Positions 43,770-64,000 are shown, numbered from the stretch's first letter. The stretch: 64,000 bases of DNA from Candidatus Moanibacter sp. (GCA_965215885.1 CBDCEW010000090.1:54393-118392); one strand, 5' to 3'. The notes: generated from the sequence alone by a model not told the origin. Made by a program: numbers and translations.

Positions 43770-44611
43770 AGGTTTGAAGCTAGATGGTTCAGGATGGATG
43801 AAATTGTCAAATTGTATCGGACGCCCATCTTAATTCGAAGGGGAACGGCAGAGGCCAAAAGTCTCAAAGTCGAAAGTCGCAGGTTAGGGGAGGAGGAATC
43901 ACGAGAATCATGGGGTCCGGTCGTCCGGTTTTCGATTCTGTAGAGTGAAAAATCGAAGACTCTGGTTCCTTACAGAGAATGCACGTTGAGGAGGCAAGGG
44001 AGCCCTTTCGAGTGAGACATATGTTCGTTATTCGTCGAAATACGAACAATCGGTAAAGTTCGAAGTAAATCGCGGTCACAGAGCGCCACAGAGAAGCACA
44101 GAGATTCACGGAGAATTGTAAATGGGAATATAGAAAGTTGGGAGGGTTCGACCGCGCACGACTCTGCTAAACGGCAGAGTGGATGAGGAACACAGATTGA
44201 CATTTTAGTAAGGAAGGCAGGAAAGCCCTTCGACTACGCTCAGGTCAGGCAGGATTGCCCAAACTATAGACCGAGGTAGGAGTCGACTTCGTCTCTCTGC
44301 CATCCGGCAGAGCCTGAAACGCGAAGAAGAGCTTTCCCAAGAGCGCGACCGAATTATTAGCCCACGAATAGCGCTTTTGGGAAAACTATTCTTTGCGTTT
44401 CTCGACTCGCATAAGCGAGTTTGCGAAGTCGACACCCTATTGCCCATCCCGCGACTGCGAGATCTAAGTCCTCTCTCTATCCGTTCCATCCGTGAAATCC
44501 GCGGTCATGCTGATCCCGATCGACCTTACGTCGAAAGATGTTTCCCGGTCCTCCCGGCAAGCCGGACTCCTCAGAAGGACTTACTAGCTTACTTGCGGCT
44601 TTGCTGCGCTA

Positions 44612-44787
44612 GCCCGCATATTTCACACACTTCGTCGCGAGACAGCGGAGGTTGCGGCGGATCAAGGGCTTACCAAAGTCCGGCGGATGACGGTGTGTTG
44701 GAACACGTGGAAGTCGGCGGACGAGGCAAGTCGTTGAGGTGCCGTAAGATCCGCCGGCGTAGCAGATGGCTTGTGAAATTTGCGGGC
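44612..44787. mobile_element. Family-B MITE (176 bp) with TA duplication
   Basis: TIRs GCCCGCATATTTCACA / TGTGAAATTTGCGGGC flanked by TA; interrupts a family-A 3' end (GCTGCGC-TA-GG). Confidence 0.85.
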
Positions 44788-44868
44788 TAGGTGCTTCGGT
44801 GTGCCTCGGTGTTTCTCGGTGATGCTCTGTGACCCACTCTTCCAATACTCCATCACTCCACCATTCCA

Positions 44869-60835: not shown

Positions 60836-61488
60836 AGTTCGTCTGTTGGAGAGATTTTAAACTATTGTCGAAAACCTGATCAGTTTGCCAAGAATATCCT
60901 ACCTCATGCGGAAACGCGCCCTTAGAGTATCGGCCTACACTTGCAAGCCAAAGGTACTCCAATCATCCTCTACCAATGTGGGAATTGCTCTACTCCATCC
61001 CGAGCTTTCATGCAACAGGATTCGCAGATTTGCAGAATTGATCGCAATACTCCGCCACCTTGAACCCGCCCAGCGGGACGAGAACAACGCAGCTGGGCGT
61101 GGCAATCCAGAGAAAGGCAGGAGGGGCATTCACTATTCCTGGATCGCCGCGCCTCCCTTCGGTCGGCTCGCGATGACAGTGTGCTACTATTCAATTGCTG
61201 GAGTAATAATCTACAGAACGCTATTAATAATTAATTGGTGAACTGTTGAATCTGTGAATTGTTAATGATCGATAGGATGGTCGACTACAGATCACGATTG
61301 AGAGTCACGATGGAAGAGAGGGAATAAATTCGATCTTCCTTCCTAGACCTTATCCGAAAAGCTACTGATTGGCCGCAAAGAGGCGCAAAAGGCGCAAGAA
61401 AAACTTGAGAAAAATCATTTTTTGGCTTGATAAAAAGTGTCGCAACATGCTAGTGTTTAACAACCTAAGATTAAGAAAAGAGTTAAAC

Positions 61489-63039
61489 ATGCCAACATGT
61501 GCGACAGAGGAGAACAAAAGCGATAAGACGCCCCTTAGCAACCTCATTCTGCCGGTTCCAGACACGGATTTCCGTGATTTTCTGGATGAAGTTGAAGAAT
61601 TGGCCGGGTTCGCGGCGCAAATCATCGAGGCGATCGAGAAGGATCTGGACGCCCATGCGCGTGAGAAGAAGAAACTTCGATTGGAAGATCGCAGGTTCTT
61701 TGAAGGGCGCACAGCGGAGCTGCCGGAGCTGGACATCGAGGAGGAGAATATTCTGGCTGCTGAATTGAATCTTGGGGTAGGCCGGCCGCGGATGCCGGCT
61801 TATGCGGTATACGTGTTCGTGATGATTCGAGGGTTTCTGGGTTCGTTGACCACGAAACCGGCACGGCGGTTTGTGCGCGAGTCGATGAGCTTGTACGGAT
61901 TTTTGCAGAGCGGGGGACTGAGAATGCCGGCGGTGACGACGATTCTGGAGAACGTGAACCTGGTCAGCCATACGACCCGCGAGTTGATCTTTGATAAACA
62001 GATTGGGTTTATCCTCCAGGAGCAATGGGACGATTTCGGGAAGCTGACGATCGACAGCACCTCGGTGAAAGCAAACAGCTGCTGGCCCACCGATGGGAAG
62101 ATTCTGAGCGGTCTTTTGATGCGGGCCAATCGTTTGGGTCAGAAGTTGCATGTCTTCGGGCTGGAGGATTTTCGCAAGGGATGGGTTGGGCGTTGGCTGG
62201 AGGAAATGGACAAGCTGGAGTTTCAGATTTGTCTGGCCGCGGGCAAACCGAAGTCGAAGGGCAAGCTGAAGAAACACTACCGGCGGTTGCTCAAGCGGGG
62301 CCGCAAGGCGGCCGACTCACTAACGGGGGAACTGAGCCATCTTGAAGAGGGCCTGTCGATGGATTCACTGCCTCCCACTCGCCGGGAGCTTCTGGAGCGG
62401 GCATTGAGCCAGATCAGGGGCGATATTGCCGACGCCAAGCGGGTTGTTGAGTATGCTCATGATCGGGTGTTTCACGAAAAGAAGCTACCGTCCACACAGA
62501 AGGTCCTGAGCCTCTCGGACGGATCGGCGGCCTACATCAAGAAGGGCAGCCGCAATCCAGTGATCGGGTACAAGCCACAACTGGTTCGCAGCGAAAACGG
62601 TTTTGTCACCAGCCTGATCGTACCGCAAGGCAACGCGGCAGACTCCATTGAGCTGGCGCCGGCCATCGGCGATTCGATCAAGCGCACCGGTGTCATTGCT
62701 GAACTGGTCAGCACCGATGACGGATATGCTTCGGCGAAGGGACGCAAGGAGGTGCTGAGCATGGGGGTAAAGCAGATCAGTATCAGTGGGGCGAAGGGCA
62801 AGAAGTTGACCACCCCCGAGGACTGGGAGAGCGAGGCGTATCGCGAGGCACGCCGCGATCGCTCCGCAGTGGAGTCGCTGATGTTCACGATTAAAGATGG
62901 ATTTGCCTTTGGCGAACTCGGCCGCCGCGGCATCGATGCGGTAGGCGATGAACTGCTCGAGAAGGTTCTGGCCTACAACTTCTGCCGCATCATACTGATG
63001 AAGAAACGCCGAGGGGAGGAACTGGAACAGGCAGCCTGA
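61489..63039 (+). CDS. IS5/ISNCY-like DDE transposase
   Basis: GRP, TIDSTSVKAN..WPTD, STDDGY, RSAVES; start probably M61489 rather than 61369. Confidence 0.85.
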   Translation: MPTCATEENKSDKTPLSNLILPVPDTDFRDFLDEVEELAGFAAQIIEAIEKDLDAHAREKKKLRLEDRRFFEGRTAELPELDIEEENILAAELNLGVGRPRMPAYAVYVFVMIRGFLGSLTTKPARRFVRESMSLYGFLQSGGLRMPAVTTILENVNLVSHTTRELIFDKQIGFILQEQWDDFGKLTIDSTSVKANSCWPTDGKILSGLLMRANRLGQKLHVFGLEDFRKGWVGRWLEEMDKLEFQICLAAGKPKSKGKLKKHYRRLLKRGRKAADSLTGELSHLEEGLSMDSLPPTRRELLERALSQIRGDIADAKRVVEYAHDRVFHEKKLPSTQKVLSLSDGSAAYIKKGSRNPVIGYKPQLVRSENGFVTSLIVPQGNAADSIELAPAIGDSIKRTGVIAELVSTDDGYASAKGRKEVLSMGVKQISISGAKGKKLTTPEDWESEAYREARRDRSAVESLMFTIKDGFAFGELGRRGIDAVGDELLEKVLAYNFCRIILMKKRRGEELEQAA

Positions 63040-63285
63040 ATCTGACCGCTTTGAAGCTCAGAGAAAAAAGCACGACGGGATGAGTATGCCTCCAGACAGC
63101 GGCAAATATACGTATTGTGCAGCAAGCCACGCCGATGGCCGCTCAATACCTGCTCATCGGCAGCGCCGGCAGCCTAAAACCCGAAACCTGCCAGCCATAG
63201 GCTGGTCCGCCCGTGGCGGAGAACCTTAAACCGCCCGATCGAAAGGAATAAATTCGAATCTTCTTCCTATGGTCCCAAAGGCCTA

Positions 63286-64000
63286 GCCCGAACATTTCAG
63301 ACAGCGCCGATTAAAACCGGCAGTAAGTAGTGAATGAAAGAGTCATACAGTAAAGAACTAGTCAATCGTACTGGCCCCGAGTCATGGCGGTATATCTGAG
63401 AGGGTATGCTGCAAGCGTTGACAGGGGAAGATGCAGGCTGCGTGACTGAGCCGCGAAAGTTGGGCAACGTTTGGAGGGCCGACCTTCTTGAAATATGGGG
63501 AAGGCAAAAATCGGACGGGTCGCAAAGACGAAGAGCCGTCCGGCCTCTGCGCGGTCGGAGAGCGGGGCATGCAAGGAAGCTTACTGAGCGGGAATCGGGA
63601 GAGCCGAGGACCGGCAGCGCAAATGGCAGCGCTGTCCGCACCGCGAATCCAAGGAGTAATGCGGTGATGAACGGTCCTGGGCAGTCGGACAGGTCCGTAG
63701 TACCGAAGAAGGGGGCGAACAAAGATGGTGCTGCGGCACTTTTGGCGGAGTCGCTGGAGGAAAGGGACCTGCCCAAGGGGAATCCTCGTGAGCAAACCAA
63801 CCGTCGGGCACAGGACCGGGAAAGGTTGCAACAAGCGCAGGCGAGGATACGGCGAATGGCACAGTACGCTCGCGCGTTTATACCCGAGGGAAGAGCCCGG
63901 TGCGGTAATTCCGCCTGCCGGGATCTGCGCGGGGGGTCCCCGGAGACGGGGATTCCTACCGCGACCAAACCATCTGCTGCGACCACGGATGTCACTGCGC
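63286..64000 (+). mobile_element. Family-B element end interrupted by the group II intron; continues past the window
   Basis: TA-GCCCGAACATTTCA|CAAACCATCTGCTGCG aligns with the reverse complement of the 44787 end, GCCCGCAAATTTCACAAGCCATCTGCTACG. Confidence 0.75.
63300..63965 (+). ncRNA. ORF-less group II intron
   Basis: Domain V GAGCCCGGTGCGGTAATTCCGCCTGCCGGGATC (about 63893-63925); domain VI with bulged A near 63958, ending GCGAC; domain I hallmarks GGCCCCGAGTCATG and GCGTTGACAGGGG; no RT ORF. Confidence 0.9.

Follow-up and report, generated by a model that had tools for sequence, protein, structure and literature searches.

The 64,000-nt stretch of DNA analysed here (G000:C90:54393–118392; hereafter the window) stops at position 64000 together with contig C90. 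Close to this end, on the plus strand, lies a 666-nt group II intron that lacks a reverse transcriptase (RT) ORF (63300–63965; 5′ GACAG...CGCGAC 3′), recognized by an Rfam match, by BLAST copies and by empty sites at both ends. The intron sits in the left terminal inverted repeat (TIR) of a TA-flanked MITE, between ATTTCA and CAAA(C/T). Its 5′ exon, the outer end of the host MITE (63284–63299, plus strand), consists of TA and the first 14 nt of the TIR, belongs to a 17-nt flank that is common to four copies of the intron, and contains IBS2 (GCCCGA, 63286–63291) and IBS1 (ATTTCA, 63294–63299). The 3′ exon (63966–64000, plus strand), which opens with CAAACCATCTGC directly 3′ of the intron, is the interior of the MITE; it ends with the contig, and its 35 nt are found in more than 25 other places. 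Empty MITEs continue from ...GCCCGAACATTTCA into CAAAC... straight across the insertion point, and the identical 17-nt left end is present in 54 of 136 bodies of the host MITE subfamily. Because the flanking bases at each junction differ and the empty sites can be compared directly, the limits 63300–63965 are exact and unambiguous. An earlier note on this DNA had proposed an ORF-less group II intron at this position, and every coordinate and motif that it gave, including GCCCGA, ATTTCA, TTGGGC (63460–63465) and TGAAAT (63489–63494), was found in its place in the sequence.

The domain I core (63339–63564, plus strand) matched the full length of the Rfam model RF02005 (group-II-D1D4-6, model positions 1–225) with 155.1 bits and an E-value of 1.3e-44, against a gathering score of 49. 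This core holds both guide sequences: in the alignment, EBS2 (TTGGGC, 63460–63465) falls in an unpaired internal loop and EBS1 (TGAAAT, 63489–63494) in the terminal loop of the hairpin GCCGA...GAAGGC, an Id3-type hairpin loop, which is where the earlier note had expected it. For domains II–III and J2/3 we infer the limits 63565–63649 (plus strand); the segment is collinear with a full-length sibling described below, and its motifs are conserved in relatives. The remnant of domain IV (63650–63890, plus strand) contains a Shine–Dalgarno-like AAGGAG, an ATG at 63667, 66 RT codons (63667–63864), a deletion junction at about 63853–63866 and the last approximately 25 nt of the domain. Domain IV is thus reduced, as had been claimed, yet it is more than the 'stub' of that description, with about 240 nt left that include the first 66 codons of the RT; in a tblastn comparison, residues 1–66 of the sibling's IEP were 71% identical to the remnant. 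No stop interrupts the remnant ORF between the RT start and the contig end (63667–64000; 108+ codons), so that it crosses domains V and VI and enters the MITE, and gene callers may report it as a hypothetical protein.

Folding placed domain V, with its AGC triad, a 2-nt bulge (63915–63916) and a 5-nt loop, at 63893–63925, and domain VI at 63928–63963 (both plus strand), with a bulged branch-point A at 63958 that lies 7 nt from the intron's 3′ end (terminal AC, 63964–63965). When this structure was laid on 29 relatives, 98.9% of cells were paired and 15 of the 27 pairs had changed on both sides, values that none of 500 shuffles reached; controls in which the structure was slid gave at most 47.5% pairing. 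Domain V on its own comprises 12 pairs, 99.7% paired over the 29 relatives, and 6 of these vary on both sides. Both domains therefore fold, and covariation in the relatives supports their having been called intact. The Rfam model for domains V and VI, RF00029, found no match in the intron even at E ≤ 1. This miss is probably explained by two lineage-wide features of domain V, a 5-nt loop that is not GNRA and a G.A opposite the triad in place of the usual G.U.

The 5′ terminus, GACAG, departs from the GUGYG that serves as the canonical criterion for group II introns; the domain I fold, domain V, a branch-point A with a 3′ AY and EBS1 and EBS2 pairing are all present, and membership of the Rfam family RF02005 is the only class assignment made here (as opposed to IIE, IIF and the like). 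The position of this 5′ end is fixed by the empty-site comparison and by the adjoining IBS1. Relatives start with GAUAG, GAAAG or GAGAG and sister introns with GUGCG, and the exon–intron boundary is real in both the GANAG and the GUGCG group, because the exon bases just upstream pair with EBS1 in each. The GANAG sub-lineage was seen at 63300–63304 of the window and at L011:1501, L020:1477, L013:1501, L111, L112, L114, L117, L120 and L126. Compared with GUGCGCCGG, its variant reads G-ANA-GCGCCG, and the GUGCG sister introns have the same downstream domain I sequence.

The element that houses the intron is a multicopy, TA-flanked MITE of approximately 180 nt with terminal inverted repeats and no ORF. 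Searching the genome for the 18-nt TIR with up to 4 mismatches returned 519 matches, which form 186 adjacent inverted pairs, 142 of them 150–200 nt apart. One empty MITE, from a sister subfamily, lies in the window itself (44610–44789); it has TA at both ends, and each of its TIRs carries an unoccupied near-cognate site, ATTTCA/CA, at which IBS1 is perfect and IBS2 (GCCCGC) pairs with EBS2 at 5 of 6 positions. The proposal that the ends of this MITE (44612–44787) are empty homing sites accordingly stands, with TIRs as described and sites that are near-cognate. Across the genome, the pattern GCCCG[AG]NNATTTCA occurs at 254 sites, preceded by TA at 237, and 4 of the 254 are occupied by an intron, an occupancy from which homing must be rare, recent or extinct. 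All four occupied sites are among the 118 with A at −9 (the GAAC...CAAA end type), against none of the 136 with G (GGAC).

We found no autonomous transposase element with these TIRs in either G000 or G006, the genome of a relative in a different genus of that family. G000 does have two DDE_3 elements, which were set aside as autonomous partners, being without such TIRs, and the longer TIR pairs in the two genomes proved to be MITEs with a nested IS or pairs that enclose ordinary genes. The TIR, TA-G/A-C/T-CCG...ATTTCA, is common to many unrelated MITE bodies genome-wide; some elements that carry it are tiny palindromes of less than 60 nt, and some adjoining MITEs share a single TA. On sequence grounds, the shared TIRs and shared TAs would fit TA target duplication by one transposase family. 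Mobile elements of other kinds seem to use the MITEs quite generally as a landing pad: MITEs of the same family hold further insertion sequences nested inside them (L129, G006:C1:188300–190280; L030, G000:C105:184300–186900), one with a 457-aa transposase-like ORF and copies in G000 that are about 71% identical, another with an ISAs1-like split ORF, and a short CCCGGC..GCCGGG insert is seen in many MITE variants. In the window, a 1.9-kb insertion sequence (61343–63246; transposase-like ORF of 556 aa at 61369–63039) ends 38 nt before the intron-bearing MITE. BLAST returned on the order of a hundred near-identical (97–99.8%) full-length copies of it, a figure that is not an exact count. Its multicopy nature accounts for the depth of 360–740x of public-run contigs at 63100–63246 and for their divergence from the window after 63246.

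The earlier note had held that the intron is specialised on the TIR of a multicopy element. BLAST of the assembly revealed three further full copies, on contigs C49, C103 and C91, which each share about 95% identity with the one in the window and bring the total to four. In all four, the intron lies between CTAGCCCGAACATTTCA and CAAA(C/T)..., with unrelated outer flanks, and in the three complete copies the 3′ side continues for 164–169 nt to ...TGAAATGTCCGGGCTA. With one full-length and one truncated copy from G006, all six close copies are in the TIR, a result that, together with the EBS/IBS co-variation set out below, supports the proposed specialisation. Two decayed fragments were also seen in G000. 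The one on C94 (G000:C94:91074–91273; L028 1501–1700) has a non-TIR flank and consists of the first 127 nt of domain I, at 85% identity, fused to a piece of the ORF remnant; the other (G000:C5:13365–13444) is 80 nt long and 80% identical.

The full-length copy in G006 (G006:C3:3089634–3091559; 1926 nt) carries an RT gene. Its identity to the window intron is 90% over positions 1–554 and 86% over 567–666, and between these segments 12 nt in the window copy stand for 1273 nt of the sibling, a loss of about 1.26 kb of RT ORF. The comparison of the two sequences thus indicates that the ORF-less form arose by a single deletion of approximately 1.26 kb from an RT-encoding form. The sibling protein, of 493 aa (ORF at L011:1867–3345), scored 348.5 bits with TIGR04416 (cut-off, 300) and contains RVT_1; nothing follows its maturase region, and an endonuclease domain is absent. 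The sibling is inserted between TAGCCCGGACATCTCA and CACACTTCG (CACAC at the 3′ junction). All four copies in G000 occupy the GAAC/CAAA-type end of the MITE, and the full-length copy in G006 is in the opposite end of this MITE family.

The guide sequences have changed together with their targets. In the window, EBS1–IBS1 and EBS2–IBS2 each form six of six pairs, as the earlier note had proposed for TGAAAT with ATTTCA and for TTGGGC with GCCCGA. Between the window intron and the sibling, EBS1 differs (UGAAAU and UGAGAU, respectively) and so does IBS1 (AUUUCA and AUCUCA), both partners having changed together, and EBS2 reads UUGGGC in the former and UCGGGC in the latter. The truncated second copy in G006 is in a TIR variant, TAGCCCGCTTTTCTCA, with which EBS1 forms 5 of 6 pairs. 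Among 54 matches to the TIR pattern in G006, 34 have ATCTCA and 20 ATTTCA; exact 18-mers in G000 number 183 with ATTTCA and 13 with ATCTCA. In two genera, then, the guide sequences are seen from these counts to track the locally dominant TIR variant. More distant relatives (in G045, G057, G020 and 17 metagenome loci) have other EBS1 sequences and other targets. Over 14 distinct intron/exon combinations, EBS1 and the last six exon bases formed 6/6 pairs in 11 and 5/6 in 3; mismatched partners reached 6/6 in 14 of 180 control pairings. Both assignments, EBS1 in its hairpin loop and EBS2 in its internal loop, are therefore backed by co-variation across genomes, for EBS1 with G006 and the relatives.

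In the metagenome scan, the exact 45-nt 5′ pattern of the intron had no match, and a looser 29-nt 5′ pattern found the 17 loci of more distant relatives, none of them in this TIR. Three of the GUGCG relatives from metagenomes (L113, L116 and L123) lie directly after ...CATnnnnnnnCCTCC(T/A), a flank whose reverse complement gives a ribosome-binding site with an ATG start; judging from these flanks, their targets appear to be translation start regions, on the antisense strand. A locus in a genome of the same order (L012, G045:C1:1963760–1967291; reverse strand, about 1476) contains a head-to-tail intron–intron junction, at which the 3′ end of one copy (...CTACCGCGAC) abuts the 5′ end of another (GATAGCGCC...). 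A 955-nt relative (L015, G020:C119; reverse strand, 439–1393), inserted after GGGGTCAAACG, is a second, independent ORF-deleted form, with another deletion junction and with N-terminal and C-terminal pieces of the RT ORF retained.

We considered whether the copies in G000 could descend from one MITE that gained the intron once, the composite then being copied by the MITE transposase without any movement of the intron itself. The composite does retain both outer TIR tips, and the restriction of all four copies to one end type (4/118 GAAC...CAAA sites, 0/136 GGAC sites) is what such an origin would give. By contrast, the introns on C49, C103 and C91 are 0–1 of 663 nt apart (0–0.2%), whereas their MITE bodies are 11–19% apart. 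When 136 MITE bodies were placed in a maximum-likelihood tree, the nearest neighbour of every body with an intron was an empty one (99%, 98% and 92% identity), and an approximately unbiased (AU) test, for which the group had been set by intron presence before the tree was built, rejected a single clade of the three intron-bearing MITEs (lnL difference, 66.5; p = 0.00956). Near-identical introns in diverged MITEs and the outcome of the AU test mean that the intron entered separate MITEs rather than being carried by transposition, and the insertion in G006 is in the other MITE end type; copying as a passenger of the MITE is consequently very improbable. The data instead demonstrate, in so far as sequences can, independent and site-specific insertion into diverged MITEs.

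Insertion into separate MITEs could in principle also have come about at the DNA level, by homologous recombination or gene conversion between MITEs, with neither an RNA intermediate nor an RT. Hundreds of homologous MITEs would be available as partners and the cognate RT was not found, but the homology on the 5′ side amounts to just 16–17 nt (TA plus TIR) before the flanks become unrelated, and on the 3′ side each recipient has retained the diverged sequence that it had, the flanks of the copies differing from +5 onward, so that there is no long co-conversion tract. The precise GA...AC limits and the co-variation of EBS and IBS between genera also fit reverse splicing, and we regard spread at the DNA level as improbable.

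The other three copies are set apart by 27–28 positions and 3 gap columns from the window copy, which has the same deletion. Since this deletion is common to both intron lineages, the ORF was lost once and the ORF-less form kept inserting afterwards. On this evidence, an RT-deleted intron has spread on at least three occasions into a MITE family that has no transposase. The two lineages differ at 15 of 241 positions in the domain IV remnant and at 15 of 425 elsewhere, with no significant enrichment (p = 0.12). From the 15 outside the remnant, of which five others are in domains II–III, we checked 8 in domain I and domains V/VI, and all were structure-neutral: four in domain I are at unpaired model positions, three in domains V/VI are at the domain V bulge or the domain VI loop, and one in domain VI converts C-G to U-G.

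Taken together, we favour a reading, to which we give a probability of about 0.8, in which the mobile group II intron at this locus is non-autonomous, its RT having been deleted, and has as its DNA target the TIR of a MITE family flanked by TA. In this model, the excised intron RNA would recognize the top strand of the TIR through two base-paired stretches, GCCCGA (−14 to −9) with EBS2 (UUGGGC) and AUUUCA (−6 to −1) with EBS1 (UGAAAU). It would then reverse splice between ATTTCA and CAAA and be copied into DNA by an RT supplied in trans. Because the cognate RT of the sibling has no endonuclease domain, priming would presumably be from replication-fork DNA, as in RmInt1-type introns. Retrohoming would thus be the route of spread and the RT would have come from elsewhere in trans; the copies would still splice, and a TIR split 14 nt from its tip may disable the host MITE.

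The model requires a source of RT. The assembly comprises 105 contigs, the shortest of 9.1 kb, and is 90.3% complete with 5.5% contamination; in it, neither a TIGR04416 search of the genome nor tblastn with the sibling RT found a cognate RT. The TIGR04416 search returned a single small RT fragment along with two RT introns, on C92 and C37, that belong to other lineages, and tblastn placed the sibling RT at 32% identity to the RT on C92 and 43% to that on C37, the nearest, with only the 66-codon remnants of the four copies besides. The full-length RT-encoding sibling that the earlier note had envisaged thus exists in G006 and was not present in the intron's own assembly. We also compared the contigs of four public runs over 63100–64000; the share of the sampled words present in a run was at most 0.39. 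In X2, one contig of 710 nt bridges the ORF-less form; in X2 and X3, the sequence upstream of the C49 and the C91 copy appears in loose ends at the intron 5′ junction; and in X1, a contig of 179 nt is an exact match to 63267–63440. Among the loose ends listed for the contigs of the four runs (one is not shown), none was at the deletion junction, which argues weakly against a co-resident full-length sibling. RNA-library contigs cover parts of the intron in a way that cannot show transcription or splicing of the locus, and a 666-nt 'skip' in one of them, considered as a splice, is a further empty MITE with an upstream flank of its own. Candidates for the helper RT are an unassembled cognate copy, one recently lost and a heterologous RT.

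Whether the introns still move is a separate question. They might be relics, retrohomed copies whose helper RT has since been lost and which are now immobile, splicing or not. The absence of a cognate RT from the assembly and from the contigs of the four runs is in keeping with this, as are the occupancy of 4 in 254 sites and the fact that purifying selection on the ribozyme, measured against the domain IV remnant, was not significant (p = 0.12). On the other side, three of the copies are identical or one base apart, so the last moves were very recent; all 8 differences checked in domain I and domains V/VI are structure-neutral; and 10% of the genome is unassembled. We consider extinction of this kind a serious possibility, although we lean against it. 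That the RT-less lineage is still spreading in a genome devoid of its own RT, only in MITE TIRs, through the distant intron RT (43% identity) or another cellular RT is unlikely in our estimation, if less so than either passenger transposition or exchange at the DNA level; in that case, one non-autonomous parasite would be nested in another, in two layers, and the GANAG end would indicate that a mobile group II ribozyme can do without a GUGYG terminus.

Under the favoured reading, of an RT-deleted intron that homes to a MITE end, the locus illustrates neatly, in nature, how selfish elements can be nested, a retroelement on the conserved end of a DNA transposon, with the TIR as a plentiful and harmless landing pad for the intron. 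Intron biology gains from it one more bacterial intron that has no ORF and yet multiplied with no evident helper RT, and is pointed to a sub-lineage whose 5′ terminus is GANAG; in annotation, 'inserts' of 0.7 kb in the MITEs of a repeat-laden genome are accounted for. Our full-text literature search, which covered main texts, returned no paper on a group II intron in a MITE TIR.

ORF-less introns are described as rare in bacteria and nearly always accompanied by related IEPs, with C.te.I1 given as the sole exception (PMC4424553). In Thermosynechococcus elongatus, ORF-less introns are reported to be mobilised and spliced in trans by related IEPs (PMC2882425, PMC4424553). There, as here, RT-deleted bacterial group II introns multiplied in one genome; close RT-encoding introns are present in T. 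elongatus, unlike here, where the nearest RT is 43% identical. The intron resembles C.te.I1 of Clostridium tetani in being ORF-less, in having no related IEP in the genome and in a 5′ site that is off the usual GUGYG (PMC4424553, PMC4024640); altered 5′ splice sites upstream of GUGYG are reported for fungal rRNA introns and for C.te.I1 (PMC4424553). C.te.I1 is, by these accounts, a single-copy intron in a coding gene, with alternative splicing and loss of EBS2-type features, and is not known to be mobile (PMC4424553, PMC4024640), whereas the intron here is present in four copies in non-coding MITEs and has kept EBS2 and the branch-point A. Groups IIE and IIF are described as small, RT-encoding bacterial lineages of 450–700 nt without the IEP (PMC3753933); the present intron shares with them a compact ribozyme with EBS1 and EBS2, its own assignment being to the Rfam family RF02005 only.

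Two introns that live in insertion sequences come closest in way of life. RmInt1 resides in ISRm2011-2, of the IS630 family (PMC5894124, PMC4238363, PMC3035460), and is said to stop this element from spreading (PMC5894124); its target is described as 'within' the IS (PMC5894124). As in RmInt1, the RT (here, that of the sibling) is without an endonuclease and the host is a TA-duplicating element; unlike the intron here, RmInt1 carries its own RT. To our knowledge, the target of RmInt1 is not in the terminal repeat of ISRm2011-2. The closer parallel is RmInt2, which was shown experimentally to target the inverted repeats of ISRm17, and whose authors argue that inverted-repeat targeting gives the intron twice as many targets and ensures that one of the sites is on the lagging-strand template (PMC4615759, PMC5894124). 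Here too, the IBS region (−14 to +1) is inside the TIR of a multicopy element, which offers two sites per element on opposite strands. Unlike ISRm17, the host is a MITE of approximately 180 nt without a transposase, which provides hundreds of sites rather than a few IS copies, and the copies are RT-deleted, of RF02005 type and start with GANAG. The homing strategy is therefore RmInt2-like and not new in principle, it is found here in an apparently different lineage, and nothing is overturned, the targeting principle being already experimental in RmInt2 and ISRm17. What the present introns would add to that system, judged by their sequences, is a MITE as host, an ORF-less form that spreads and a non-canonical GANAG 5′ end.
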